Assembly: GCA_044892505.1 (NCBI GenBank)
Contig: CM097883.1
Coordinates: forward strand, 183,706,001 to 183,770,000
Origin: Schmidtea nova
Taxonomy: Eukaryota
Reading direction: 5' to 3'
DNA length: 64,000 bases
The position numbers and the translations under genes are program-made. The notes under the pieces were generated by a model. That model worked only from the letters and a program-made list of their open reading frames with translations. It had not been told where the DNA came from and searched no databases. Shown piece by piece: positions 4,867 to 64,000 of this stretch. Position 1 is the stretch's first letter, and each line of letters begins with the position of its first letter.

Positions 4867-6698
4867 ATGAAAAAAAAAATCAAGCGTTTGGAGCTATTTT
4901 GACAAGGACATTAACTCAGAGACACCTAAATGTCTTACATGTCGTAAAGATATGAAATGCAAAGAAGGATCGACATCGGCTCTCACAACACAATTGAAAA
5001 TTAAACCGGGCATTAGTTTAAAAAATATTGAAGAGTCAGAAGAAAATCGCGCAAAAAAGATGAAACGTCAATCAGGTGATATGATTAATTTTATGAAATG
5101 AGAGAGCTTGCCGAAATTTTTAGCGAAGTGTGCTGCATTTGATGGATTTTCCTTACGAGGAATTGTAAATTCAAGTGCAATTAAGGAATTTATCAATAGG
5201 CGGGGATATACGATGCCTCAACATGCATCAACTATTAAAAGTATGGTTGTAGATTTGTCTAATGAAAAAAAACTGGAACTCAGGGACGAACTTTTAAAAT
5301 TAACAAGAACTGGAACACGATTTTCTTTTACCGTAGATAAATGGACAAATATAAAATGTAAACGTTTTTTAAACTTGACTTTGCATGACACTAAAAATGA
5401 ATATAAATTAGGTTTAATGTATATTAAGGATACGTGCGATGCTTTTAATTTAAAACAAATATTACGGAAAAATTAAATGAATTTTATCTTAATTTAAAGA
5501 AAGATATTATAGCATCCACTCACGATGCTGCAGCAGTGATGAAAAAATACAGGAATTTAATTGGCATTAAAAGTCAACTTTGCTATAATCACGCTGTAAT
5601 GGAATTATTTTATAAAAATATTGATGAACGTGTACTTCCTCAAAATGACACTGAAAGTGATAATGAATCTGATGAATCATATGAAATTGATTATTTTAGT
5701 TTTAATGCAGATAAATCTGATAATAATCCGTGTATACACGATTTGCTAAAAAGCGTCCGTAAAATTATCCGATGTTTTAAATATTCTAGTGTAAGAAATT
5801 CTATTTTACAAAAATACGTTTAAGAACAAGAAAATAAGGAATTAGTTTTATTATTAGATTGTAAAACGAGGTGGAACTCCTTGACACCGATGATTGAAAG
5901 GTTTATTAAAATTAAGGAGTGTGTACGAAAATCTATTAAAGATATTAACCAGGAGTTTTTATATAATGAAATTAATTTTAATATATAAGAAAATATTGTT
6001 CATGTTCTGAAACCATTAGAAATTAGCGTTAAAGAATTAAGCAAAACTGATGCAACAATTTTAACGGCGGAAGGAGCATTTCAATTTTTATTTGAGCAGT
6101 TAAAATATATGAATCTCCGTTTAGTTCTGAAATGAGAAATTTATTAACTAAAAGAATATTAGAAAGACGCAATCAAAATTTAGTCACTTTGTTAACTTAT
6201 TTACAAACTACAGTGATTCCTAAAACAGTATTTAACTCAACTCAAGTATATATATCCAAAGCTTCCACAATTGCATACGAAAAACATTATAGGAAGGCTT
6301 TTCCCAAAAAACCTGATATAACAGAAACAGGCGAATCATTCGATGTACTTGTAAATAGAGACACTCACACAATTTCCTCAACTGTCATAACGGATCCGTT
6401 ATTTATAGAATTGCAAAAAAGCATATCTTCCATTATGACAGTTCCATGCCCGAAAGACATTTCGAAGGAATCATTGCAGTTAAATAAAGATTTCAAATCA
6501 TTTGAATCTACCAAAGAACGTACGCCAAATCTAGAAAAATTATATAAAGCATTATTAACGATTAAACCCACTTCAACTGCAAATGAACATGTATTTAGTG
6601 TTGCTAATAATTTTTGCACCAAAATTAGAAATTCTATGCACCACAATACACTTGATGCATTAGTTTTCTTAAAATATTATTTTTTAAATAATAAATAA
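4867..6698 (+). pseudogene. Inner hAT transposase (BED finger, DDE core, dimerisation domain), disrupted
   Basis: SSVWSYF..CLTC (BED), FSFTVDKWT..KRFLNLTLH, CKTRWNSL, TIKPTSTANEHVFSVA..LDALVFLK; several stops and frameshifts. Confidence 0.88.
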
Positions 6699-7159
6699 AA
6701 AAATGTGTGTTATTTTATTGTATAAGTAATAAGTATTGTATATTTCTATTTTTCTTACATTTTGATATTTGTGTTCATTATGATGAATTTTATTGTATAA
6801 GTAATAAGTATTGTAAATTTGTCTTTTATATTTTGAAATTTTTGTTCATTATGATGAATTTTGTTGTATATATTTTACAATGTACGTATAACTTCTCTTA
6901 TTCACCACCTTTGAAAACAAAAATAAAAGAATTATTTCCTCTTTTCGTGTTTCATTACCTATTTATATTTATTTATTATACCTATTTTTAAACAATCAAA
7001 CTATTAACATATAATTTTAACAAATGTTTACATTTTTTTTAATTTTGCAAATTACGTACTTGATTTTCTGAGGACAGTTTTAACCGGTTAACAGGTTTTT
7101 GATACGTAAAATACCCGAAAACCGGTTTGTACTTTTCCTCCGGTTATTTAGATGCCCTA

Positions 7160-8894
7160 TTCCAGAATGGTATTCCAAAAACACACCAAGAACACAGTTT
7201 CCAACTTATCCATGACATTCGCTAAATTTGTTGCTTCTGATCTCGTTTCTTTCTTTTGCAAACTGTTGCTGCCACTTTCTTGCAAAACAGATTGGTAGGT
7301 TTTATAGTGCTGATACATACTTCGTAGTGCAACAGCATGAGCAGACCACCGCGTGTCACTGAACCGTTTTGGAAGTAGTGCAGACTTTGACTTATCCGTT
7401 CCGATTACCTTTCGGCTGACAGCATCTTTGACAAGATTCCATCTATATGTCGAATCAGACAAGAAAACATAAATGTTCTGAACAAATCCGAAAAATGCAA
7501 CTGCCTCAATGCAAGCGTCAACAGCTGCAACCCCAGACAGATTCAGTGAGTGTGCCATACAAGGAATATAGGACGCCGTTTTTATGATTTCAATTATACG
7601 TGCCTGTACACCAGAATATTGTCCAGACATATTGCTGGCATTGTCGTATGTCTGACCTCTGCAGTCATTTAAATCAATATGAAGATCGCGAAAAGTTTCA
7701 ACAATTGTATCGAAGAGATGAAGACCGGTGTGTGACGAAATTTGAACAAATTTTAGAAAACGTTCAACAGGTTGGCCATTACTTTTCATATAGCGAACCG
7801 TGAAAGTTAATTGATCTGTGTGTGATATATCAGGCGTAGAATCAACACTGAAGGAAAAGTACTTTGCCCTTTTTAATTCATCAATAATACCTTTGGTGAC
7901 TTTTCTGGCCATAAGACCCACAAATTCTTCATAAGTAGTGGATGATAGGTATGATGTGATGCCATGTCCAGCATTTCCATGTGTCAATATGTTCCGCAAT
8001 AAATGAATCATATTCGGCTAAATACTCCAAACAACCTAAAAAGTTTCCATTATCTGCACTTCCAAAGGTTTCTGAAGATCCTCTGAGTGATAATCCACAC
8101 GATATGAGGAATTTTATTGTAGAAAAAACTCTCTTTAAAACTTCTCTCCAATAATGTTTTTGTTTCACAGCGTGCTCCCAAATTGATTTGTCCAAAGTCT
8201 GAACATTGGATATACGCGTTGCATAAGTGGGTAGAGCATATCTGTGATCAGCTGATTTTTCGTGTTGTTCAAGTCGATTTATGGTACTCCAGCTGTCAAA
8301 TCCTGTAGTCGCAAGAGCAGACGAACTGTTTATCGAAAACAGTTTACATACAAAATAAAAAACGCATCCAGATGATGGCGAATACAAAAGCCAATGCCTT
8401 TGAATTTTTTCTCCATTGTGAGATTGTGAGTAAAATGCTGAATCATTAAGTTTTCTGTTACAATTGGTATATTTCCTTAACGAATTTGCATAAACTCCTT
8501 CACGGTTTGCACACGCATTGGGCCCAGTGTGAAGCCAATAATTCACAAGATTACTATCCAGTACATTCCAAAAGGCTGGATCAGTTACAGAAATAATATC
8601 ATGTTTAGCAGTGTCAAACAAAGTTAGCGTATTTACGATTGATTCAGCCAGGATGATATTTAGTTGTTCTGATGAAGAAGTTATTTCATCAAAATCGTTT
8701 TCTTGCGGCGAAACATCTGTTGCAGATGAACTTTGTAGTAATTTCTCAGTATCAGCTAATTTTATTTCAACGGATTCACTATAAGTTTCAGATCTTTTAA
8801 CAAACTTATCGATTCCGCCACGTTGCAGTTCTGCCGCCTTTTCAAAAAGACGTTTCTTTTGGCGTTTTTGTGCGCCAGATTCAAATTTTTTCAT
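7160..8894 (-). pseudogene. N-terminal part of outer ZMYM1/Tip100-type hAT transposase (TTF zinc finger, DUF4371-like region)
   Basis: MKKFESGAQKRQKK, WLLYSPSSGCVFYFVCKLF, HEKSADH, LSLRG..GNFL, YFSFSVDSTPDISHTDQLT, CRGQTYDNASNMSG, PCMAHSLNL, DTRWSA; frameshift near 7980. Confidence 0.92.
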
Positions 8895-9617
8895 GGTTTA
8901 ATAGTAAATGTTAATTATTGTTAATATTAGTGTTAATAATAATATTATTGATAATAATGTTTTTAAAAATAATTATAATATACTATTATGTAATTTTGTG
9001 TGACGGTCATATTTAACTTATATTCGAATTTTAGTCTTGTAGACCCTCCAACGGCCACACAAAATATTTAAAAAAATCTCTAATCTAGCAAAGCATGAAT
9101 GAATGCGGTGAAAAGAAAGTAACATTCTACTACGCCGGTTAGATAATCTCAAGAGAGCGAGGCTAGAAGAATGTTATAATGCAATGATTTAGTAACACAT
9201 GTGGGATAAATATCGGATTCCTTGTCTAAATACAATATGTCAAGTTATTTATCTCCTATAACCAGATATACAGATATAAATTGTGGTAGTATTCAGTTGA
9301 CTGAAGAAAGTTTCAAGTTTCCAGATATAATTATATGCTGCGCCAACGATGCCAACGATCGTATGCCCATCACCCGGTCTGCTCAAATACAATCGGGTAC
9401 ATACATGCTACTAATGCCTACAGCCATGGACTCTATATCATAATATAGGAGTCCATGCTACAGCTTATCTTAATACAGATATGCATCTTGATCCGACTGT
9501 AAGGGATACAAGGCTTATCTGGCTATATCATCTTGCATAAAATAATAAGAACCATATATTTTTGTTCTATTTTATTTTAGCCGACAAATATTGTAAATTT
9601 GTTAATTTCATAGTAGG

Positions 9618-45776: not shown

Positions 45777-47810
45777 ATATTAAAAAGATGAAAAATTAAT
45801 GATTATATTATTTTTTAACTATTTATAATTATTTAAATTTTTTATTTAATATTCAGGCTCAATATATTACAATTTTTGTAATAGTCGTTTCCATAATGAT
45901 TATAAAGAATTCTTTCTTTCGCATAGGACTCACCTTTCCCAATTAATGCCTTCGAAAAAATGTCTTTTTAATAGCATATATGCTAATTATATTACTAATA
46001 ATATTAATAATAATAATAATAATAATATTAACAACAACAACCTTCATAATACAATTAATCAAAATACTTTAAATAATTATAATAATCTACAAAATAATAA
46101 TAATAATACAACAAATACTATTAATACTATTAATACAAATAATTTACAAAATACTATTAATACAAATAATTTACAAAATACTATTAAAACAAATATTATA
46201 CAAAATACTATTAATACAAATAAAAGAAAAAACCAAACATTAATGGATTCAGTTCCTAAAAAACTTATAATAATCGACATCAGTGATGATGAAGATGAAA
46301 ATATTATTAATAATAATAATAATAATAATAATATATCTCTCATCAGTGATGATGAAGATGATCATATTTATAATAAAAGTAACAATATTATATCTGCCAT
46401 TGACGATGACTTAATCGTCGTCAATGATGATGAATTTGATGAAATGCTCAATATTATAAATAATAATAATAATAATCAAATTGGTATGGGTATTGTTGAA
46501 GTTACTTCAGACTTGAACGATACCCATTTTATTATAAAAATGGACGTTTCTAATTTATTATTAAAAACGGTCTCTGTGCCGGATATATTGTTAGAGAAAT
46601 TAAACTCCTATATAATTAAATTAAAATCATCCAAAATTCAATTTTGTCTCAAGGTAGAATTTGAGAAAGATGATGAATTACAATCTTTTGTAATCTCAAA
46701 TTCTGCCAGAGAGTGGAGTGATACCTTTATTGAAGAAGGTATCACTAGTTTAAATGAAAAAATTGTCCAAATAAACGAAAAAGGGAGTAATTGGACAATC
46801 TCCAAAATCGAATATATAAGTTTTGTAGTAACAAAATTTTCAGAGATTAGTAGGCTCAGCGGCAGCAGTTTTATCGAGACTCCTAATACCTTAAAAAACT
46901 TAAATTGCCTAGTTAACGTCAACAATAGCGATACATATTGCTTTCTTTATAGTTTTTTAGCTATAGTTAAATACGATAGTATAGAACGCCAATACCGGCA
47001 TAGGGCTACTTCTTACGATCTTTCCCAACTGATATTTGACCCCAATGACATGCCCATGAAATTAGTTAACATTAAGAAATTCGAGAGGCAAAACCCCGGC
47101 TACAGTATTAATGTCCTTACCTATGACGAAAAGGCCCAAATAGATGTAAGTGATAGCGATAATGATGATAATGTCGTTCTTAAACACCCTTTTATAGATA
47201 TAGTGTATCGTAGTAAAGTAGTCGGGGCAATTCCTATAAATTTACTTCTTTTGGAGAATAAAGATAATTTTCATTATCTCGCGATTACCGACTTGAATCG
47301 CTTTTTTAAATTGCCGAAACAGCACCATCACCCCAGTTAGGATTCGCAGCCAATGGTGCCCTCGTTGCTTGAATGGCTTTAGGAACGACGAAGCCTTTAA
47401 TCGTCATAAGGGTCTTTGTACCAAAAATCAGTTGGGTACCACTCTCTACACATTACCAAAAAATAAATTTTTAGAGTTTACTGATTGGAAAAAAACAGTA
47501 ACTCCTCCTTTCGTAATATATGCTGATTTCGAAGCAATATTAACAAAAGACCCTGTTCATTACCAAAAACATATTCCTATTGCTGCCGGTCTCCTTCTCA
47601 TTAATAACTTTTCTGGGGTGAGAATTTATAAGTCTTTTGTAGGGTTAGACTGTGTTGATCAATTCCTAAATGAAATCGAGTCAATCAGTAGATATATAGT
47701 AACGCCCTATTATTTTAAAAATTATAAAAAACGTATGACGATCACTGCTACTCAACAGCGCGAATTTGATAATAGCACTAATTGCTATTTATGTAAAAAA
47801 CTTATTTATG
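44606..47810 (+). pseudogene. Polinton protein-primed DNA polymerase B, N-terminal half, with predicted spliced 5' exons; frameshift near 47340, truncated near 47810
   Basis: KGSNWTISKIE, SGSSFIETP, NVNNSDTYCFLYS, KFERQN..SINV, HYLAITDLNR, WCPRCLNGF, PPFVIYADFEAIL, CYLC. Predicted exons 44606-44660, 44710-44778, 44829-44993, 45857 onward. Confidence 0.88.
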
Positions 47811-50088
47811 TAAAAGAACAATATAAAAGGAATTCGAAGCAAATGAAATAACACTAATAAAGAAAAATTGAGAAATAATAAAAGGAAATAAAACTAGATT
47901 AAAGCAAATAATAAATTTAGAACTATTAATGATAAAAACAAATAAAAAGAACGAACAATCACACGAATGAATAATAAAAATAATTATATATTAAAAGAAA
48001 ATAAAACCCAATTAATTATAATGAACAAATTCCTAAAAAGGAAATATTAAATAAGAATGATTCGTCAATTTAACGAACGCAACTCGAAGCTGATTGGTCG
48101 AGCCAACCCGTCCAAATAACATAAATAGCGACGGCAATCCCAGTTCAAAAGCATTTTTTTGTATTTCAAGCACTTTTTTAGCATTTGTTAATAAATTATT
48201 TTGAGCTTCAGTATCATTGTCATTGTACCAATCATCAGAAATTTTACGTTTTGTGGATATCAATATTGTAAAATATAATTTGTTGTTATTTTATAAATAA
48301 TTTGATAGCTAAAATCTCTCCTCATTGATATGGTGAGTCTCGGGCGGCTTGTTGAGTAGTTCCCAATTTGCTGAACCTACTGTTCCAAACTGAGAACTAA
48401 GGTCAGACAGTTGGTATAGTCACTGAAGGCAGTTGTAAGGAGCTAGAAATACTAGGATTTGAATATTTTTTTGGGAATCCCTAGATCATCGAAGGATCTA
48501 TTTTCGAGGGTAAACTACTAGTGAAAAAATGATATGAAATGTCTGTAAGCGTAATGAGTTGTTATTAAATAGATGTCGTGAGAGCATTTGCAATATTATT
48601 ATTAAAACATTAGAAATTCTATCGTGAAATATATATAGTAAAAATTACAGCTAATGTCGAGAAAACAAAGCTTCAACATTGACATGCATCAAGTCGAAAA
48701 TCAGAAAGCATTAGTTACACGGAATTTGAGCTAAAATACGGTAGAGATAATTCACTTGAGAAGTCGTTGTGGTGCAAATGGGAAATATAAAGTGCGGATT
48801 GCTGAAGCAATTATGAAATTTGCCCAATTATCATGACAATGAGCGTCACAACTGTTCATAGAGAAATAATGAAAAATTGGATAATGGTCGAGATCGACAC
48901 ATGAAAAATAATTATCGGTAAAAAATCGGTAAGACATCAAATAGACAGTAATTATAATAATAGCGACTTGGCTGATTGGAGAGATGGGGAAAATTACTTA
49001 GTAATTACACACGGGCAACAATTAGGTTGAAAATCCATTATTAATAAAAAGAGTCACAATTATAAAAAATTCGGAAACTTTTCATAAAGCCACGAGAATG
49101 TCGCTGTGGTGGTTGTCAACTTTACACCTTAAGATAATAGTTAAAAATAAAATTAATATAACTAAAATTAAAATTAAGGTTTAATAGTTAACGTGGAGTC
49201 GTGAAATGTTTTGATTGAATACTTGAATGTATTAAAGAAGGAAATTAATGTTAATATATAGTTATATGTTATCACTTATAATATCAAAAACACAAAACTT
49301 ATATAAAATGAGTATATTACTCTGCAGTAGCAAATGTGTATTAATAATTTTCATTCTTCTATTACAGATAATGACTAATCAAATGAACTTATATGAGGTC
49401 ATAATAGTGAAGGAGGAACCACAGTACGTCCTTCACCGCCCGAGATGAGAAAAGGAAAAATTACGGCAGTCGAACTAGGGCGTAGACGAGGACTAGAACC
49501 CTTCTCCACCGAGTGTGAATTACAATACAAGAGAGTTGTTTGACTAGGAAGCAGCGAATGATCTTTCCGAGCTGGAGTGAATTATGCCAACACACCAGAA
49601 TTTTTAGTACACTAAAAGATTCCGGGTACTATCTTCGAGATGGTCAGCTATGATCCTACCGAGAATGATCAACAGAAGAATTCTGTATACATGGTTGAGT
49701 TACATTTCCAAAGAGGAAACATCGCTAAGTGACAAGGGACGGCCGTTAGCAGCATTGATAGATAGCGTAATATAATCAATGTTCATAGTTGTGAATAAAG
49801 CTTTCTTTAATAACTGAGAAATGAATCATTGTAAATCTACCTTTTTTTAGTTTTGCGTGACGATAAAATCTTTTGGTTCACTCAGTTCAGTAATAATTGA
49901 TTAGATATGTAAAGTAAGAGTTATGGAGATATAAACACCCAAAAGTAATATAGAAGGATAAATGCATAACCGGAAATTTTAGAAGAGTTATTCTTTTTTC
50001 ATAAGTTTAATTTTGTCATTTGCCAATTGAGACCAATTGAGGAAATGTAAAAAGTTGAAGCGTGTGGTGTTAATCATGTTATGTTAAT

Positions 50089-50821: not shown

Positions 50822-51568
50822 TTTAGATTTTCTTAATATAATATCTAGATTTTTAAATTCTTTCTTTATTAAAACGATTTACCAATTATAAAGTTGAGAG
50901 ATTTTAAATATTATAAATTAGATTTTAATAATTAAATATTAAGTGACCTGAAATTACATTTAACTAGTAAAAAAGTAAAGAAAAAAATATTTAAGAAAAA
51001 TCAATTTTTAAATAAGTTGCCTAAAATTCTGGTTATTGTTAAAAATTTACAATGAGCAATTGAGCTTCGTTACCGAAATTGCTCTTTATTGAATTGGGTT
51101 CATAGCTGCTAGTAGAAGGTACTACGTATACTTTAACTTTTTAGAACATACTTGTTCATTAGTTAGTTTTTCTTGAATCGAGAATATCTAGCGTTTACCC
51201 CAATTTAAGCATTTGATTTCATGAATTTTCCAAATCTTTGATATGACTGTTGGGTTGATGAAGGAACGGATAATGGCGAAAAGTAAACAATTAATCATGA
51301 GAGAATAAAGAAAAAATGAAGAATGTAAAAATAATAATAAAACAAATAAAAAATGACAATTAACAATAAAAGCACAATTAAAACAAAAATAAGCAGTGAA
51401 AAAGCGAGGAAAATGACAAAATATGTGAAATATGAGTAAAAGGCAAAAAATAAAGAGAATAAAAGAACAATAATAAAAATAATAACGAAAAATAATAAAA
51501 TAATAACGAATAATACAAGATAAAATAAATTAATAAGAAAATCGAGCGTTTAACCAATAAAAAGGTTA

Positions 51569-51612
51569 CTCGATTCTGATTGGCTGCCTGAGCGTCGATT
51601 TTAATATATAAG
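51569..51612 (+). promoter_or_regulatory. Y-box (CTGATTGG) plus TATA
   Basis: ctcgattctgattggc...tatataag, followed by a GT-AG intron around 51783-51854. Confidence 0.5.
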
Positions 51613-52921
51613 GAAGCGCTCAGGTCAGTCAATTTAATGTCATTTATATCAACATAAAATCACTCTGCAATTTTCACTCGCACAAGTATCCACAGTCAAG
51701 TACGCCATTATCAGTTCAAGAAGAATTCAACAACGCTCGAGGAAGAATCGCTGAAATATTGTGCATAAATCAGAAGGAAATTGTAAGTAACTTGTTATGC
51801 CAAATATAAATTTTAACCATAAATCATATTTCGTTTTCATTAATTGTATATAGATAATGCGAGAGTTCGGCGATCCCGTTGATTGTCAGCTCTCCGGGGA
51901 GATCCATCTTTGTTTCGTGTCTCGGCACGGGGCGAAGATGGGTTGCTCCGTAAAGACCTTTTTATGATGGACAGGGAATGAGTGAATGTCCGGAGGCCGT
52001 TGCAGCATCAAAATATCAAAACTACATATAATCCGTAGGAAGCGAAAACGTTGATTGAGAAACCTACTAATTTTTAGAAAAATCCAAAACGGCTGCGTTC
52101 GTTGAAATTTTTGATAAATCTCTAGAAAATATCACAGTAAATCCAAGCGAAATCGTGAGTTTCCATCTAACCGTTGTAAACCAGTTCCTATAGTAGGTGA
52201 AATGCGTTTTGGGTATGAAAAGATTGAAACATAAAATTGATAAAATTCCAGCTCTAATCGTTTACCCATTCCCACCAAATCGTATAAAACTGCCTGCACA
52301 TAATAATTCATGCGATTACATAATTATGCCTAATAACCTCTCTAATGATTCACAGTCAAATCCAATGCCCGAGCGAATTATTGAAAACCCCGTAGATACC
52401 GTCAAGGAATGCGGTAATTACAGATATGAGATAGATTAGAGATTCATCAAATACATGAGTCCTTAACCGACAGCGATTTCGTTGAGAATAGGAAATAATT
52501 ACCGGAAAGGCAATTAGCGATGCTTTCGTAGTTCTTACTAGAGTTCGCAGAAATCTAATAATTGGCCTGAAATTGCTGGCTCCGAGAAAGTAACAATTAC
52601 CGATTGTAAGAATAATGATCATAATTAAATGCTGAACATCTCAAAATTGGTCAATTAAAATAATCTCAATCGAGCGAAAAATCAACATGAAATGAGAAAT
52701 CTAGGGGAGAATGATAATTGATAAAATGGGGAAATTTCGGGAACCTTACCCTACATAAGCGTCATTGATACTGTTCGCAAATCATGAAACATATAATAAA
52801 TAATTAATTCCCCAAATATTACTAAGCGAGTGAATGAGGCGAGAGCGAGGACACATGATGGGGGGCGCGGTATATAAATTGTGAATTACCCATTTCTTGT
52901 ATACTTAGACATTCACGAACG

Positions 52922-53425
52922 ATGTATTATACCGGAATTCAAGTTACAGGACCTCAAGGAGAGACTCGGAGAGAGAAAGATTTCATGGACGAGACGCGGA
53001 TGTACGATACGCACCTAATGATGCTCATGCCGCTCAAGCCGATCCCAACTGAGTTGGCCAATGAGATCCTACACGAGCACAAGGAGGAATTCGAAAGGAC
53101 GGGAATTGCCCCGCCGTTTAGCCTGTTCCGAGACGGTCCATCGGATATCATTTGGCATGGCAGCAGGGAATGGCCGATCAACGTGGATCGCCCTCGCTGG
53201 CCAAACCAGGCGAAATACTTTGTGGAGACTCCCACCGAAATTCCCGGGAGATACCAAGTTTATTATCAAGGCGAGATTCCGCAAGAAGAGTTCCTGAGTA
53301 CGGGACGATTCGTGTTCGCCCCGGCTCCATCTCCAAGTCCGACGGAATCACCATACAGCCCTTCAACGCTTAGTGATGACAATAGCGACGACAGCGAGGT
53401 CGAGATCATCGCCGAATATTATTGA
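52922..53425 (+). CDS. LTR-encoded 167-aa protein with Ser/Pro and acidic tail
   Basis: GC box + TATATAAA at 52861-52878, intact ORF, AATAAA at 53506. Confidence 0.75.
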   Translation: MYYTGIQVTGPQGETRREKDFMDETRMYDTHLMMLMPLKPIPTELANEILHEHKEEFERTGIAPPFSLFRDGPSDIIWHGSREWPINVDRPRWPNQAKYFVETPTEIPGRYQVYYQGEIPQEEFLSTGRFVFAPAPSPSPTESPYSPSTLSDDNSDDSEVEIIAEYY

Positions 53426-53860
53426 ATGTGATCAACTGTACCTGTATTAACCATCAATTATATGTTTCTTTGTGTAGTTGTTTTTCCTCTATTCACTTGT
53501 TTAGTAATAAAAAGTTGTAAAGTAAAGGAAAATAAAAGGTCATCGCGTAAGCACTCCACCGACAGTAAACATGCAATAAACTAAAAGAGATAGTAAATCC
53601 AGTAGCGTAATACAAAACTAAAGTTTTAGGAAATTAGGCAAAAGCACAGGAATAGAAATCTGTTAGGTTAAATGCACTGCACTCGTATACAAATATATAG
53701 CGTTTAGTCCACGAAGGATAGCCACCAACCGAGGAGGCGAAGAGGTGGAGAAAACCGAGTCGTAACCAAGTAAGGGTCGAGTATAAATCCCTCGTTTTGC
53801 GATTAAAAACTAACTCAATAATTACGAATATGCTTCTGTCTTCTAGTAAAGAAAAGAGCC

Positions 53861-54292
53861 ATGGACGAGAAAACTATAGGACAATTGAAGAGGAGACTCA
53901 TTGACCTAGAAAGCAGTTATTTTTCACCGACAGAAATGAAGAAGGTGAAGGAGCAATTGATCAGGGCAACGCAGGTTATGCAGGATCAGAGACAAGAGAT
54001 AGATGCCCTAAAAATCGAACTCAAAAATTGTAGAGCATTCATCACAGAGAAATTCATAACGGACAACCTTAAAAACTTAATTCGCCCGATAACGTTAGAA
54101 AGATGGTTTCCCACACCAGATCAATCAATAAGTACCGAAATCGAGATGCCAATACCGCCAACCACAAAGCGAAAACGAAGGAAATCGCACGCACAACGCC
54201 GACAACAGTTGAAACTGAGTATGGAGGTCGACACCAACAAAATGGTCATCGATGTGAACAGTATTGGAACAACAGGCGTGAAACGCAAATAG
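53861..54292 (+). CDS. LTR-encoded 143-aa coiled-coil/NLS protein, positional analogue of 40620-41183
   Basis: TATAAA at 53782, KRKRRKS, VIDV, AATAAA at 54311. Confidence 0.75.
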   Translation: MDEKTIGQLKRRLIDLESSYFSPTEMKKVKEQLIRATQVMQDQRQEIDALKIELKNCRAFITEKFITDNLKNLIRPITLERWFPTPDQSISTEIEMPIPPTTKRKRRKSHAQRRQQLKLSMEVDTNKMVIDVNSIGTTGVKRK

Positions 54293-54803
54293 TGATTGTA
54301 ATGTTATGAGAATAAATATATGTATTTAAATAAAAATGTGTTGTTATTTGTTAGACGAGAATTGAATTAAATAAAGTAATAACGACAAATGAACTCCAGT
54401 TTTCATCGACTCATAAAACCGTAAATAACAAAGTAACTAATAGGAACAATAAGTATAGGGGCTGGATGGTAATATAGGAAATAGAGAGCAAACACCCAAA
54501 ATGAGAGACCTAAATACAGGGTGAGGAGAGTTACAACGAGACCTTCTATCGGTCAAGCTAGAACCCGAACGATGCGACAAGTCAGGAGTAGTTCTTGTGA
54601 AGGAGCTCACCTGCTGGCTTGCGATCGGCTGTTATACACAATTCCAACGTGAAGGATTAGGGTAATTCACGGGTGTATGAACAGTTAAGTTTTTATGTGT
54701 GTGTTGGACCCTAGAGAGCGAAGAAGAACGTTTTTAGAAAGAGAAAGTGAAGAAAGCTGATTCAGAGTTTGAAATTTTTTAACAGAACACACCAACATAA
54801 ATT

Positions 54804-54821
54804 TGGGGGCTCAGCCGGGAT
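54804..54821 (+). promoter_or_regulatory. tRNA-Pro primer-binding site
   Basis: tgggggctcagccgggat, identical to 26308-26325. Confidence 0.9.
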
Positions 54822-56631
54822 TAAAGCGATTTCATTGTGAAAAAATATGAACAATAATGAGAAAGAGTGTTGAAACACACCATCAGCAGGGAAATTATAA
54901 TAGAGAAAAAAGGGAAACTACGGGCGCAGACGGAGTCAATAAGAAAAGCAGAAACCATAACGATATCGTAACGCCGAGGCGACATTTCTCATGAAACCAG
55001 GAAAAGGTCAAGTAGTAGATAGAAACATAAAAGAAACGAAACACCACTACTTCAAATGTACTAGAAAAGGAACCGATGGCTCACCAACATAAATTTGGGG
55101 GCTCGAAATCAATAGTGGCTCTATTGGAAAAAGCAATAACAATAATAAGGACCGGGGATCTAAAGCGATTTTATTGTAGACAAATATGAACAATAATAAG
55201 AAAGAGTTTCGAAACAATAACGAGCATAAATTTGGGGCTCAGATGGAAGTGACCCTATTGGGAACAAAGAGGGATTAACAAGCAACCCAATGAGGAGAAT
55301 GTGGAAACTATGGCAACAGACGGAGGTAGCAGGAAAAAGTAGAAATTTAACAATAGTGCAATGTCGGGACGACATTTGGGAAACCGCCGGGAGAATTGGA
55401 CAAGAAACGAAGCAGATTACTACTTGGGATAAGTCGAAAGAAACCGCAAATCAATCAACATAAATTTGGAGCTTAACGAGTGGCTCTATTAGGAAAATAG
55501 TGCAAATAAGTAGAGAAATAAAGGTATAAAAGTAATAAAAGGAAAAGCAAATAAATCGTATGTATAAAAGTACTGTATGGAAGGTATTTAGGCAAAAGTA
55601 TAAAAGTAGTAAACGGAATGTAAATAAATTAGGAATGTAAAGCATAAAACGGTAAGTGCATGTATAGAACAATCGAAAAGAGGGCATGTTGTAAATAACG
55701 CAAGTAAATAAAACTAAAATAACAAGACAAAAATAAAAACAAGGAATAAGCGAAAATAGGAACTAAAACACGGGGACGACAGTAATTAGGAATAGGGGGT
55801 TACACAATCAATAAGCTAAAAACAAGTGAGAGGGATAGACAATTAAATTATAAAGGGGTAAACAAAGTAATAATATCAAGGGATAAATAAAATGATAATA
55901 CAATGGGGTAAACGGGAACAAAGAGATAAAAAGACGGGGTTGGATAATTGCGATAAATAAACTAACAAGGGGATAGAAAACAACCTGAACAAGTGGGAAA
56001 ACGTGCGCTTGGGAAATGATCGGTGGATAAACGCTAACGCAAGGGGTAAATAAGAAAGAAAAAAAAGGATATGATGAGATAATAAAAGTTGGGGATTGAA
56101 TAGTAAAGAGAATGGAGCTGCTGACCGGTTTTCGGACATTCACCACTGTCGAGAGAGGAAAACGAGATGTGAAAATGTGTGTATAAATGACAAAATAATA
56201 ATTTTTGAGCTACCTTCGAGTAGTACGTTAGGAATCCCATGGGTAAACCGACAGATCAAACTAACTAGGGAAATATAGGACGGGGCCCATCGCATATGTC
56301 GGAAAACCTCTGTGGTGTGACTGATCACCATACCGTGCAGTGGGGGACCGACGCGATCGTGTTATATCTTTTTGGTTGGGGAGAGAAATAGGAAAGCCTA
56401 GGGGAATAAGAAGCGCGCTAAAACAAAAATAAAAATAAGAGAAGTAAATGGCCAGTTGTTACCCAGAGATAGGAAGCGTTATAAAATAAAAGAGATAAGC
56501 TGGCACAAAAGAGATGAAATTAAACGACGTCGTAGTGAATTGATTGGGATATGTAATCAGCTCTTGAGAATTTATAAAGTTACTAGTAACGTGGATAAAG
56601 AAATGGTAAATAGAGGAACAATTGTAAACGA

Positions 56632-57119
56632 GAGATGCTTTGAAACATAAGCCATAGAGATGCTTTGAAACATAAGCCATAGAGATGCTTTGAAACATAA
56701 GCCATAAAGATGCTTTGAAACATAGGCCGCAGAGATGTCTTGAAACATAGACCAGATGAAATTGAGGAAATCCTGGAATGCCCTGTAATGTTCGGGTCCA
56801 GATGAAATTGAGGAAATCCTGGAATGCCCTGTAATGTTCGGGTCCAGATGAAATTGAAGAAATCCTGGAATGCCCTGTAATGTTCGGGTCCAGATGAAAT
56901 TGAGGAAATCCTGGAATGCCCTGTAATGTTCGGGTCCAGATGAAATTGAAGAAATCCTGGAATGCCCTGTAATGTTCGGGTCCAGATGAAATTGAAGAAA
57001 TCCTGGAATGCCCTGTAATTTTCGGGTCCAGAGGAAATTGAGGAAATCCTGGAATGCCCTGTAATGTTCGGGTCCAGAGGAAATTGAAGCAATCCTGGGA
57101 TGCCCTGTAATTTTCGGGT
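56632..57119 (+). repeat. Adjacent tandem arrays: 25-bp unit x5, then 46-bp unit x8
   Basis: gagatgctttgaaacataagccata from 56632; ccagatgaaattgaggaaatcctggaatgccctgtaatgttcgggt at 56752 and every 46 bp. Confidence 0.95.
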
Positions 57120-57241
57120 CCAGATGGAATATTGTCGGTGAGCAAAGAGGGGGATGTCGACTTCAACTCAAACTAGCAGCCGATTCTGACCAGCAAAGAG
57201 GGTGGGGAAGCACCCATGCCCAAACTAGCAGTCAGACTATT

Positions 57242-57380
57242 TCCGGCCAGAAGGAGCCGAGGATAATGATGACGGCCATAGGAAGCCGCTGTTGATTTAC
57301 GGCCATAAGGAGCCGCTGTTGAATATTTTCGGCCAGAGAGAGCCGCTGTTGAATTAATGATGGCCAAAGAGAGCCAATAG
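57242..57380 (+). repeat. Degenerate ~30-bp repeats (ggcca..gagccg)
   Basis: About five imperfect units. Confidence 0.75.
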
Positions 57381-58223
57381 TGAATAATAATCCGGATTAA
57401 AATGAGGAATATTTAGGGAAGTATCAAGGTGCGCACCAAAGAATAGTCAAAGGAGCTCTGTAGAGAATCACGTGATTGAGAGGAAACTGATTACATATCG
57501 CCAAAATAAAGTATAGAGAACCGCGGATTAAAGCAAATTGAGGTAAGTAAGCGAATCAAAGATAAAGTGAATTAAGGATAAAGTGAATCAGATTGAGTAA
57601 ACGAATAGACTAGGTAGACAAATAAAGTGAGATAGAGAATAGAATAGAATAAAATAGGAGAATAAGTGAATTAAAAGGCATTGAAGCCAAAGAGATAAAG
57701 TGAATTAAGCAAAACGAATAAAGCAGAATAGGGAAATAAAGTGATTTAAAGTCTCGAGACAAAAGGGGGAAATTGAGGCTAATAGGCCAATGAGTAAATT
57801 AATGTAATGAGATAAAAGGTAAGGAAAATAAGGGATCCCATGAGAAATAAGAGAGAAGCTCGAGTAGATGTAATAAAAGAGGAAATCTCAAACGATAAAA
57901 GGTTAAAAGGGTAAGAAACCCAATAGAGCGGAATCGCGCTAAAATAAACGGGGGGTGTGAGAAAAATATTAATTGGTGTTATGGTAAAACTATAGATAAT
58001 TGATGCGACTCTATAGATAATTGTTACTACTGGATAGATAATTTAAATAGACTCAAAATCAAGGGAAATGGGATATGGGGAAAAATTCAAAGGAAACCGT
58101 AAAGACCCATTAAAGCTTAACCACGAACGAAAAGAAATCGTTGAAGTGATTTAATTGTAATTTAGATCACAAAGCAATCCAAGTAACAATCAAAAAGGAC
58201 AAATCAAAACAAGAAAGGATTAA

Positions 58224-61200
58224 GTCGTAGACAAAACAGGAACCATTGAGAAATCATACTTCCTGAGACACAGTACAAGGGTTGACATAGAATTAACACC
58301 AGAACAAGCGGAGAAAATCAAGAGAAATCGATCGCTATCGTTAAAAAGACAACCACTAAAACCCCTTGGGAAACAATTGTCGGATATTAGTGACAAATCA
58401 AGCGATAAAGAGAATCAACCGAAACCAAAACAAAAAGAAAATAAAAGAAAGACTAGAACAAACAGAACAAAGTCAGAGAACGACGAAATAAATATAACCC
58501 CAGTAGAAACAAAAGTAGAGAACGAAGAAATAGATACCACCCCAACAGAAAACAGAGAGATAGAAAGAATAGAAAACGTAGTAACCCCAGAAGTGGATAT
58601 AGATAATAATAATAATACAACAAGAGATAGCGGATTCGAAAACATGACGGAAGTAGAAGTTAAAAAGGAAGAATTGAGGGAAAAATTTAGAGGCGAACCA
58701 TTCAGTGGTGACGCTAGTAAATTTGACGCGTTCATAAAGGAATTTAGCATATATATAAGAGTATGCCGATGGACAGATGTCACGGTAGTCGAAAGGATAT
58801 CGTTGTATTTAAAGGACAGCGCTCTCGACTTTTATGAAGAAGCGAGAGGCAGAGAAAGAGCACCCAAGAATTGGGAAGAAATAAAAGTGTTTTTACAGGA
58901 AACGTTTGGAATGGCTAAGGTGTTAGACCAAGCATTCGACGACTTTTCAGAAAGGAAACAGAAGAGAAACGAATCCAACGCAGTATTCGCTAGTGAACTA
59001 AGAAGATTAGCTAAACTAGCAGAAGAAGGTGGAAGTATAATAAGCGAAGGACTATTAACCGCTAAATTCGTCCGAGGATTGAGGAGACCAGATATACGAG
59101 CACAGGTGGGATGCAAAGGATGCGTCAACCTGGACAAGGCATTAGAACTTGCAAACAGATTTGAGTTACACATGACGGTCAATGACGCAAGAATCGCCGT
59201 AGCAGCAAGCGAACTAAAGGAAGATAAACCGGTGGAATATGCAACCTTGAAACAATCTATACCAAACGCACATTTATTATTCAAAAGTGCTCCAGCCGGA
59301 AGAAACAACGACAATAACTCGCAGAACAATAACTGGAGGAACAATTCAAGAAACAATGGGAATAACAACACAGGATCAAATAGACAATGTCAATTATGTG
59401 GAAAAATTGGACATTGGCAACAGGATTGTTTCCGAAACATGAGTTGCAACAAATGTGGAAAAAGAGGACACACGGGGAATATTTGTCGAGCCAACAACTG
59501 TTTTAATTGTGGAGGATCAGGTCACTTGGCACGAGAATGTCGATCTGGGAACAACCAACAGGGAAATAGACCAAACAATGGGTATCGACAAAACACGGGA
59601 AATCGGACTAGCCCGAGTAATAACCAGAACAGTAGAGAAATAAGACTGATGCAGGAAGTAAACAGGCTATCAGAAGTGATAGAGGGGATGGCAAAAGCGA
59701 ATCAAAAGAATAACCCGCAAAAGATTAACATGATGAGGAAGACGGAAAACGAAAACGATAGAATAAACGAAGAAAGCAAACAAAGACACTTACAAGAGTG
59801 GCAAAGATTACAACGAGAAGAAGAAAGAGTGAAACAGGAAAGATGGCAACAACAACAAAACGCACCAAGAATAAACATGATGAGAGCATTCAAGAAGATA
59901 AAGGAACAATACTGGTATAACTACGAGAAAACCCCAAAGGAAACAGGAGATGTAGAGGTAGAACGAGGAATAGAAGAAGAAGAGACTCTTGAGAATAACG
60001 AACCAAAAGCCATAGAGGAAGGCGGAAGGAAGGAAGAAACGATAAGCGACAATGGCAACGCGGAAAACACAATTAAAGAGGAAGAAGAGAAACCAAAAAG
60101 GATGCTTGTGATAATGCCAAATGACCACGTATACGCATTTCGGTATGATGCAAAGGAACGAGTAGGAGACCTGATGCGGAGAATAAAGGAACTATGTCCA
60201 GAGAGGCTAGTAAGTAACGTAGAGATTTACTGGAAAACGAAAAACAAGCCCGAGAGAAGAATAAGCGAAACGGACATTTGGGAAGAAATAGGAATAGAAG
60301 TGAAGGAAAACAATTACTTGGTCCTTCGAAAAAGAAAAGAAAGAGAGAATAATGGAAGTGCGATACCCAGAAAAAGTAGAGTACAAGAAATATTTACCGA
60401 GCGACTCAGGATAAGAGCCGAAAAAGAAGTTCTGGAAACGAACCAGTCAGGCGTAAGAACATTACAAGATTTGTTAGATAAGGAAAACAACGAGACAAAC
60501 GAGGACCTAATCAAACCAGAACCAAGCACAGAAGAAAGAAAACGAATACATCTAGCGCAAATCAACATGATGAGAAACATAGGAAATGAATCCTCAGACG
60601 AAGAAGATAGCACAGTGAGTAGTTTAGCGGGAGACATATTACAAGAAACGAGACCGAGCGAAGAAGTTATGGAAGTAGATGAGAACAAAGAAAACGAACC
60701 GGAGATTAAAGTGGACAACGACGAAATAGACAAATTACGGGAAAATGCGTTGGAAGTGATCAGAAATGAGGAGTTCATAGAGGAATCCTCATATAGGAAA
60801 TTTGTGAAATTAGTGTTACAAGTAACTACGACGTTACCACAAGTTGATATATTACGAAATGAAGAGAAGAAGATAGTTGCAGAATATGTGAGCGGTATGA
60901 AACAAGAACCAACGGTAGAATACATAATACAGTTGTGGACGGAAGAAACCCTACCACGGATATGGATCAAGACAACGAATACAAACGAATTATATGAATG
61001 GGTAAGGGATAGATTAGGAAATTCGAACAAAAATAAGTCAATATACGTGGACGATTGGAAGATAAAGGCCAATACATCGCTAAGAGACGCACTTATATGG
61101 TCAGGTGAAGTGACGACGTTAACATTGAGTAAAGAACAAGTGGAAGTCGACCCGAGAAAATGGGCTAAAGAAGCCAATATAAGATTCAAAAATGGGATAA

Positions 61201-64000
61201 AACCACAGTTAAAAACAGCTAAGGAAAGGATATTAAGAAATAATTTAAATAAGTGGTCTGACCAAATAGTAGGACAAATTGAGAAAAATTGGGATAAGCT
61301 GATAACAGAGGAATTTAAGAACGTAAAAGAATGCATAGAAAACATAAGAGATACCGAAAAGATAAGATCGTCAAGATATGAAACCAATAGGTTAATAGGA
61401 AAGTTTGGAAAAACGATGTTTAAGAAAGGAGAAATAACGGGAGTTAAGGTGACAATAAAATTACCAAACGGCGAAGAAACGGAAATACATATAGAAGTGG
61501 GTTGTACGATTCGGGAATTGATGGAAATACTAGACAATACAATCCTACAGAGAGTAAAAGAGCAAAACGACGATGAGTATGAAGACGATATAGTGATAAT
61601 GTACAACGGTCACTTGTTGGAGAAACATGAAGAGATGTGTTTATATAGACTAGGCATATGGGATGACAAGCAGACGATAAGTATCATACCGATGGACGAT
61701 CCAGAGAGAATTACCCCAAGAGATGAAGCAAAAGCGAGAGAATTTCAAGAGGAAATGAACAAAAAGTTGAGACGAATAATGGATATATACGGACAATGGA
61801 GGAGAAATCCGAAATTCGGAGAACTATTAGAAGAATTAGACATGGAGCAATGTCGGAAAACACCTTGCGAGAAGGAGTGGGACGAAATCAATAAAGGTTG
61901 GACGATAAAAGAAGGAAGATATGCGGAAAAGGTTAAAAGAGAGATGGAAGACAAAAACGAACCAGATGCAAAACGGATTTGCATGGTAACACGAACAACT
62001 ATCCTACCCACAGATATAGACGGACCAGAATCAGCAGCCATACAGTTAGGTATGGAGAAAGCAAAAACGGAAGAGTTGATGGATATACTAAAAAGAAATG
62101 CACCACATAGAAGACGTACCGTGAAAAGTCTAGCAGAGTATATCATAGCAAATGTGGAAGACATTGACAGTTTAAGAAAAGTAGTAAAAGTCATTGAAGA
62201 ATACCGAAGAGGAAACGAATGGGTACCAGAACAATTAAACCAGGTAATCCGGAAATGGAGAAACCAAGAATGGGCACAAGAACGACTCGAGAGATTAAGC
62301 CTAAAGATAGTCTACCCACATTACAAGAAGGAGGAAATATGGGTACAACTTACGGAAAAAATTAGAGACATCAAAAAGAAATTGGCCTATGAGACGCCAT
62401 TTCATCTACAGCATCAAGGAAGATCATTAGACGATAACATGGAAATTGGAATAACACCGGTAGTGTTAGGAATTACAAATACGTTAACAGTAGCCGAAAT
62501 AGATGGACACCCACTAATAAGGAAGGAAGAGAGGAGATTAAAAGGTAGTATGAGTACACCAAGCCCACTAAAAGCAATAGCATCTCCAGAAACCGATCGG
62601 AATAGACCATCAACATCGTCAACAGAACAAAATAAAAGGGAACAATCACCAAAATCCTATGATGGTGATGAGATATTAATAGATAGTGATGATGCGTTGG
62701 AAGAATTAACAAAATTAACCATGAGAGAAAATGACAACATATTCGAAAGGATGGAACAACCAACGACATCTCAAATAAATGAAGTAGAAAAAGGAATAAC
62801 ACAAGAGGTAGTAATAGAAGCAGTTGACGAGGCGGAAGGACAATATTATCCACCAATGGAACAAGCAAGAGAACCACGAACAAGTGGAGAAAATCTGCAA
62901 TTGACCCAAGATTGGAATAACTGGCTGATGAATCGAGAAAACGACACAGTAGATAACATAGAAGAAAGAAGCAAAACAGTTAAAGAAATAGGTACGTCAA
63001 TGGATAAACGACCAAGGGGTCGACCAAAGTTAAACCCGGCAGAAATTATACCAAAGACTAGAGAAGAAAGGAGACAGGACCAATGGCAAATACGATTAGG
63101 GAAACTGGGAAAAATAGCAGACACGATTAATAAAGATAATATGCAGATAAAACAAGGGGCCGAATGGATCGAGAAATTACTCATGGAAGTGTTAGGGATA
63201 ATAGACCCAGAATTAAGAAAATTATGGTTACAAGACCAAGTAAGTGAAGGAGCTCGATTGCTACACAACGCTATTTCATCCATATTACCGGAAATAATCA
63301 AAGAGAAGACCAAGGCAACTCAATTGGATTGGGAAGGTGCAAGGAGATTAATAAGAACGCTAGTGGAAGAATCAGAAACACATGCAAAATATCTAGTGGC
63401 ATTAACATATACCATTTATAATTTACTCACATTGAGTAGAGGGAGAACACAGAGAATGTCATTCAGAAGACACGTAAAAGCCACGGCGCACATTATCGAA
63501 GTAGAGATCGAACCATATATCCTAAGAACTGGAGGATGGGAAAGATTTATAAAGGAAAAAAAGAACAAAGACCAAACAAAACCAACACAAAAGAAATTTA
63601 GAGAGTTGTTAAAGGAGTTAGAAAATGAAAGTACGACTATGGAAAACGGGAGGCCAATCACAACTTGGAATTCAGTAATTCTAATGTTGTTGATATGGAT
63701 GATGAGTGCAGAAGGAAATGCAGCGTTTGAAGTGTTCGACTGCGATCAAATGCAGTTAGGAGACAGATACTCGTTAAGAGGAACAGAACAATGTAAAGAC
63801 GCGAATCCAGTTAAGTTGAAAACGTTGAACAAGAAGATATTTTACCATGTGTATCAAGAATCAGATCTGATCCGGACAGAAGTTCAAGAATGTACAGTTA
63901 CTAGATCGAAATTTGCGTTTTACTGCGGCAGATCATCATACTCAGCAATCGTACTACCAGGAACAGATAAAAAACCCGTACAGTTATCAAGGAAAGGATG
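58224..64000 (+). CDS. gag: Giant Gag-accessory-glycoprotein polyprotein (open to window end; first ATG at 58644)
   Basis: Translated by hand, no stop from 58224 to 64000. Capsid-like FSGDASKF..WEEIK..F; CCHC x3 (59388-59540); Ubl-like domains; KRPRGRPK; EPYILRTGGWERF; signal/anchor; FDC..YSL..C..C..YCG. Confidence 0.9.

Follow-up and report, generated by a model that had tools for sequence, protein, structure and literature searches.

A probable helper-dependent, recombinant Burro-type Ty3/Gypsy element with a chuvirus/gB-type glycoprotein in Schmidtea nova

The window, i.e., the whole stretch of 64,000 nucleotides that was analysed (G000:C2:183706001-183770000), contains at its right end the first part of a long LTR element that continues past the window edge (Table 1). 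The complete locus (G000:C2:183757248-183797651) is ordered as LTR, internal region, LTR, shortened internal region, and LTR, is enclosed by one TGAC duplication, and shows a period of 21.6 kb in the self-comparison of the element. The second and third LTRs are 100% identical over 3,562 bp, and the first LTR differs by seven changes and one gap; the three-LTR tandem is the result of either a recent unequal recombination or an assembly effect. LTRs of the TG...CA type, a tRNA primer-binding site, and a short target-site duplication (TSD) are features of Ty3/Gypsy elements (Metaviridae), and all of them are present. The window copy is a non-autonomous Ty3/Gypsy derivative that has kept its protease (PR) and lacks reverse transcriptase (RT), RNase H (RH), and integrase (IN), for which neither a frame nor a Pfam match was found anywhere in the 21.6-kb unit. 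Downstream of the ankyrin stop, three ORFs beside the TRAF-like one have no Pfam family above the cut-off in the next 10 kb.

Table 1. Coordinates of the features of the window copy. Positions above 64000 continue the numbering of the window (L011 position plus 63000).
Feature	Position	Strand	Basis or remark
4-bp TSD TGAC, left copy	51244..51247	+	right copy after the third LTR, 40.4 kb away
5' LTR, 3,550 bp, TGTTGG...CCAACA	51248..54797	+	holds two small ORFs
Primer-binding site, 18 nt, 6 nt past the LTR	54804..54821	+	complementary to the 3' end of host tRNA-Pro(TGG)
Leader, 3.4 kb	54822..58223	+	more PBS-like repeats; tandem array about 56650-57130
Polyprotein frame, open over 1925 codons up to the window edge	58224..64000	+	ORF list; first Met 58644
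Gag	58644..59543	+	Retrotrans_gag PF03732 (E 6.7e-8, Pfam); three CCHC knuckles (C-x2-C-x4-H-x4-C, motifs read; zinc knuckles also matched by Pfam)
Ubiquitin/SUMO-like segment	61437..61640	+	PF11976 E 0.0055, under the curated cut-off
Bcl-2-like segment, BH2-type GGW motif at its end	63069..63578	+	weak match; profile and relative
Short hydrophobic stretch, candidate internal signal sequence	63666..63725	+	by eye; helix here in the L026 model
Start of class III fusion ectodomain (predicted), from FEVFDC	63726..64000	+	Pfam PF24664; last 275 bases of the window
Ectodomain and transmembrane segment	past window, ending 65460		a single break in the frame near 65000
Aspartic protease	66055-66342		PF00077 E 6.9e-8
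In-frame junction in place of RT-RH-IN	near 66450
Ankyrin tail	from the junction near 66450		stop at 68577
Separate TRAF-like ORF	69098-70519		MATH E 1.4e-24
Two ORFs (429 and 219 aa)	70617-72652
Second LTR	from 72871
Second internal copy	between second and third LTR		minus the equivalent of 62094-68499
Third LTR	ends 91651

The LTR itself holds two ORFs (about 52922-53425 and 53822-54292, + strand), each with a TATA-like box before it and an AATAAA-like signal after it by eye. Neither ORF matches Pfam, and the first is also without a usable Atlas match. The gene of the primer tRNA, tRNA-Pro(TGG), forms a long tandem array with a 308-bp period at C1:459.61-459.66 Mb, and the tRNA-Pro(TGG) pattern has 899 matches across the genome.

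At the end of the window, the initial annotation had placed a chuvirus/gB-type glycoprotein ahead of any pol domain. The residues it had cited (FEVFDC...) occur in the cited order in the polyprotein frame on the + strand, the dot spacing of the pattern being only schematic. PF24664 (Monjiviricetes_fusion) matches residues 1819-1923 of the 1925-aa frame with an E of 1.4e-8, which is over the curated cut-off, and past the window edge it matches with E 1.6e-49 and 2.3e-21 on the two sides of a single frame break. The rest of the Cys pattern is present as well, as is a transmembrane segment C-terminal to the ectodomain (hydropathy test on the downstream continuation). The structure was modelled on the env of the sibling L026 (PF24664, E 1.9e-76), which is 98% identical to that of the window copy; with an alignment of 101 natural sequences as input, the model has a pLDDT of 87.6. 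Among predicted structures, it is matched best by glycoproteins of chuviruses (Tacheng tick virus 4, E 1.7e-39), with a TM-score of 0.57-0.66 to chuvirus G for the top three; in the PDB, every match listed is a gB of a herpesvirus (E 5.7e-14 at best, with a TM-score of about 0.4). In a search of the PDB with an env sequence profile, gB accounts for 36 of 37 matches (best E 0.0016). As modelled, the env is a class III fusion glycoprotein of the chuvirus G/herpes gB type with a predicted function in fusion, in line with the annotation.

The env ectodomain contains only one N-glycosylation sequon and, in a motif scan, no furin motif. The hydrophobic stretch preceding it stayed under the hydropathy cut-off used for transmembrane calls. 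The env frame break of the window copy lies in a short A run and is private, as it is absent from the seven other copies compared and also from the contigs of four runs of one study; either a lesion or an error of the assembly could account for it.

At E values up to 1, Pfam matched the 1925-aa frame to none of the protease, RT, RNase H, and integrase families, which bears out the earlier observation that none of the protease or RT motifs lies between Gag and env; the DNA past the window supplied the protease and neither RT nor integrase. The SUMO-like and Bcl-2-like families rank first where the published Burro layout expects them, both under the cut-off. For the Bcl-2-like segment, a profile of 10 relatives ranks Bcl-xL first (E 0.0026, under the cut-off), and the relative P0010 matches PF00452 with E 9.6e-4. 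Used as a single sequence, this segment gave nothing useful with phmmer against the PDB, Pfam, or Atlas, and its single-sequence AlphaFold model (pLDDT 42.5) led to an uninformative fold search. Three further suspected ubiquitin-like segments were dropped, as Pfam found no such family in them. L038, which contains stops, was left out of one Pfam scan. For the segment between PR and RT, dUTPases are two of the four matches (weak, E 0.49 and 1.5), and Pfam gave none. The motif I-x-(M/V)-(M/L/V) is found repeatedly: behind the nucleocapsid, within the spacer, ahead of the protease, between RNase H and integrase, and past the integrase; from this position at domain borders, we infer that it marks candidate sites of the element’s protease.

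A 601-base probe at the env start yielded 483 candidates, of which 40 were scored; all eight at or above 97% and nine further loci were fetched. Among these eight closest loci, six are pol-less at the junction and two (C1:261.27 and C1:505.93 Mb, family A) are pol-bearing. The pol-bearing locus at C1:261.27 Mb (L026) encodes env, PR, RT, RH, IN, and ankyrins in a single open stretch of 2819 codons, and an identical order is found in the more distant copies L053 (3333 codons), L050 (2037 codons), and L062 (3332 codons, by motifs). Pol-bearing siblings also lie at C2:159.87 Mb and C3:127.62 Mb. Env, PR, and RT follow in that order within one chain in five of 16 database relatives scanned (env then PR only in four), and likewise in P0004. 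The sibling RT is nearest to Ty3 RT (E 1e-82). The family order is gag-env-pol, and the complete siblings are Ty3/Gypsy elements having PR-RT-RH-IN with a Ty3-like RT. The Gypsy backbone proposed by the initial annotation, which is also indicated by the Gag family PF03732, is thereby upheld. It had offered two options: the gag-env-pol order holds for the family, and the pol-less, helper-dependent element stands as far as the absence of RT, RNase H, and integrase is concerned, with the correction that a protease is retained just past env.

One pol-bearing sibling measures 29.5 kb and another, in which 1.9 kb of LTR sequence is deleted, 27.9 kb, and the pol-less copies are 24.5-25.3 kb long; the frame of a pol-bearing sibling, computed from coordinates, runs for about 4,990 codons from stop to stop. 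A programmed frameshift before env in the pol-bearing family-A copies was considered and rejected, as the two copies differ oppositely in one short A run. In P0004, P0002, P0006, P0007, P0013, and P0019, at least two aspartic-protease-like stretches lie behind env in one chain. A cluster of seven near-equal env-start matches (73-74%) within 300 kb at C3:50.71-51.00 Mb, of which the one fetched is decayed, is a local amplification of an old copy.

A quick tree was built from 62 env rows: 15 in which a protease motif follows env and, of the others, 40 random and 7 chosen ones, from 126 usable. All 15 protease-linked rows share one side of a branch (SH-aLRT 92) with four truncated relatives, and the opposite side holds one long-branch row and 42 others, including the Bel/Pao-linked P0036 (DUF5641). 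The simple reading of this tree is that env would have been acquired by one old capture common to the lineage. The independent capture that had been suggested for env thus applies only in relation to the mosquito Bel/Pao element Anakin, and within the lineage the gene appears old and shared.

Env ahead of pol had been regarded as a surprise by the initial annotation, but this arrangement is already on record: PMC6431247 (2019) describes env in frame between gag and pol in Burro/GYPSM1 of planarians, and PMC13524379 describes gB-type GAG-ENV-POL errantiviruses in Platyhelminthes, Nematoda, and Bryozoa. Our probable assignment to Burro draws on the architecture and on agreement, judged by eye, with a published env row. 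Like Burro/GYPSM1 as presented there, the element family has a retrotrans_gag with three CCHC knuckles, env in frame before PR, PR-RT-RH-IN in siblings, ankyrins, and MATH/TRAF cargo (PMC6431247). It comes close to Burro/GYPSM1 in its single frame (about 4,900-5,100 codons) and in the size of complete copies (about 30 kb, compared with over 30 kb), and its candidate SUMO-like (PF11976) and, just before env, BCL2-like segments are weak matches. Unlike Burro/GYPSM1, the window copy is without RT-RH-IN. TRAF is a separate downstream ORF in the window copy, whereas it lies inside ORF1 in Burro1 and upstream in the D. tigrina element, according to that paper. A BIR family was not found by Pfam in the 1925-aa frame, its downstream continuation, or the sibling frames scanned, and the element is therefore not Burro1 itself. 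PMC6431247 tied the Burro env to a gypsy/baculovirus-type Env while noting mononegavirus matches; the fold predicted here is class III.

The elements of PMC13524379 share with ours the gene order, a Ty3/gypsy pol, and a gB-type env. Smed_errantivirus_1 and _2 are given there as spanning 14.8 kb, and the window env start agrees by eye with the printed Smed_errantivirus_1 row in 18 of 37 residues. The survey required all three genes to be intact, so that pol-less sub-families lie outside its scope; in its main text, ankyrin, TRAF, Bcl, and Burro each have 0 occurrences. Like Anakin, a group of mosquito Pao elements (PMC7642597), the present elements carry the same glycoprotein family, and defective glycoprotein-bearing copies exist; unlike them, in that Anakin has a Bel/Pao backbone, they have envs that group apart, with P0036 as a stand-in. 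Burro is described in PMC8532177 as being under PIWI control.

The lack of pol is not a peculiarity of the window copy. A probe across the junction is matched in full at six of the 40 scored places, and at a seventh locus an insertion divides the match into two pieces; the ankyrin side of the probe alone matches at 32 of the 40 (80-84%). One junction is thus shared by at least seven loci on two chromosomes, and it stays in frame, leading from the end of the protease to the motif that follows the integrase in complete elements. Inside 66450-68500, a sliding comparison gives a DNA identity of 77-81% to the pol-bearing family B and of 65-74%, in short patches, to family A; the internal region outside this segment is mostly 95-99% like family A, and the gag-env-PR of family B is only about 66-76% like that of the window copy. 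The pol-less ankyrin segment has 37-46% amino-acid identity to family A’s own. Since the ankyrin segment is B-like and the remainder A-like, the pol-less sub-family is an A-B-A chimera. None of the 32 listed contig pieces (31-base rule; four runs of one study) bridged the junction, with all 30 bins covered and depth not equivalent to copy number.

The TSD test covered the four pol-less copies with both ends fetched, leaving out C1:156.94 and C1:283.65, where the outer ends were not reached. All four have their own 4-bp TSD (one, in a TAA microsatellite, is weak) and LTR pairs that are 99.4-99.9% alike. Distinct TSDs and near-identical LTR pairs indicate that the pol-less copies are separate, recent, integrase-made insertions. 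Among five pol-less copies, 400 codons of env have a dS of 0.06-0.11 and a dN/dS of 0.05-0.10, and 430 codons of the ankyrin segment have a dS of up to 0.36 and a dN/dS of 0.08-0.22, including one near-identical pair without synonymous change. The low dN/dS of env may reflect selection that acted in the helper, with recombination then carrying the sequence into the pol-less copies. The TRAF ORF is open in seven of seven copies. A stop or frame break lies somewhere in the polyprotein of all seven family-A copies compared, including all pol-less ones, and thus neither a working helper nor a working pol-less copy is among them. The best reading of these sequence data is that the window copy belongs to a selected, still-inserting, recombinant, pol-less Burro sub-family. 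Non-autonomous LTR derivatives that retain coding capacity, are mobilized in trans, and recombine with their helper include BARE-2, TR-GAG, and Dasheng in plants; to our knowledge, these have neither a fusion env nor signalling cargo.

The element is very probably a helper-dependent recombinant of a Burro-type giant Ty3/Gypsy and has retained Gag, Env, the protease, and the cargo for host signalling. Complete members encode Gag, SUMO-like, Bcl-2-like, chuvirus/gB-type Env, PR-RT-RH-IN, and ankyrin parts in one long frame. Judging from the motifs, the putative internal signal sequence and the one transmembrane segment would place the Env ectodomain in the ER lumen in a type I topology, and the Gag part that precedes it and the Pol part that follows it would both be cytosolic. 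Signal peptidase and the element’s protease, the latter acting at the I-x-(M/V)-(M/L/V) border motifs, may then free the parts. In the pol-less sub-family, the frame passes directly from the end of the protease to the motif that follows the integrase in a second Burro family. As pol-less copies still insert with intact LTR ends and TSDs, RT and integrase would come in trans, supplied by complete relatives and most simply via co-packaging of the pol-less RNAs. Co-packaging with template switching would account for both the chimerism and the mobility of the pol-less copies.

Another account goes further and describes a two-component endogenous retrovirus, in which a maintained pol-less partner provides surplus Gag and Env together with anti-apoptotic and TRAF cargo, complete copies provide RT and integrase, and enveloped particles carry both between cells. 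Its premise is that a single frame fixes Gag:Env:Pol at 1:1:1 and that a surplus cannot be reached by frameshifting; the pol-less partner would be long-lived and born by recombination of two co-packaged Burro families, with complete copies rarer. The six-to-two ratio of pol-less to pol-bearing copies among the eight closest loci, the age of the private segment and the purifying selection on it, and a junction that preserves both frame and border motif are all consistent with this account. However, a selfish passenger with cis-preference predicts the same, the ratio was taken from the closest loci of family A whereas families B and C have many more copies, and splicing could set the stoichiometry instead. 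We therefore regard a two-component system as rather unlikely.

Somewhat less credible still is domestication by the host, which would have retained the cassette because of its Bcl-2/TRAF/ankyrin cargo or because Env acts as a receptor decoy. The TRAF ORF, open in all seven copies compared, fits such a role, and PMC13465017 cites a function in stem-cell survival for the IAP segment of Burro1; but the insertions are young and dispersed, with near-identical LTRs, instead of forming one fixed locus, and the polyprotein of the window copy is broken. That each pol-less copy is a replication accident of a complete element, dead on arrival and never a template, would agree with the stops or frame breaks in all pol-less copies. 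This reading is very improbable and is largely refuted by the single junction common to seven loci on two chromosomes; moreover, the replaced segment is not helper-derived, given its low identity to family A, and the synonymous divergence among copies far exceeds that of the LTR pairs and is under selection. An Anakin-like Bel/Pao element can practically be dismissed, as can an unrelated Gypsy into which a chuvirus EVE has inserted: chuvirus glycoproteins are the nearest viral structures and P0036 is among the matches, but gag, RT, and integrase are all Gypsy-type, the sibling env is in frame on both sides, the siblings’ envs group apart from 42 others including P0036, and Pfam found no Pao-specific family in the frame, its continuation, or the sibling frames scanned.

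The helper-dependent Burro-type recombinant thus remains our preferred interpretation. With the env-before-pol architecture already published, the addition to knowledge is the pol-less recombinant sub-family; we found no prior description of a pol-less or inter-family recombinant Burro in the literature searched, and Grohme 2018 or Repbase may mention one. The chimera provides sequence evidence of segment exchange between Burro families, resembling that between co-packaged retroviral genomes, and this bears on the question whether Burro forms particles. Furthermore, the 2-kb segment peculiar to the sub-family offers a target for RNAi or read counting restricted to it. In this way, what the cargo (Bcl-2-like, TRAF, ankyrin, and Env) does could be distinguished from what reverse transcription does, in a group of animals in which Burro1 reportedly protects stem cells.

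Other features are found elsewhere in the window. Another Burro-like remnant (30881-34954, + strand) contains an integrase end, the same post-integrase border motif, ankyrins, and a 596-aa ORF, with possible LTR pieces near 22490-24600 and 36442-38334. Besides fibronectin type III repeats (PF00041, E 7.5e-7), this ORF has a transmembrane segment by eye; it represents a receptor-like cargo of a kind not named in the parts of the Burro literature compared. An Asn-rich ORF followed by a Cys-bearing ORF (45850-47851, + strand) has no Pfam match; by eye, the two resemble the region before a Polinton/Maverick-type polymerase. Fragments of a hAT-type transposase (PF05699, PF14291) lie on both strands at 6096-8897. 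Finally, a broken mononegavirus L-gene remnant in three frames (1298-3740, + strand), with capping (PF14318, E 4e-26), connector (PF21080), and methyltransferase (PF14314, E 3e-43) domains, is a piece of an endogenous negative-strand RNA virus.
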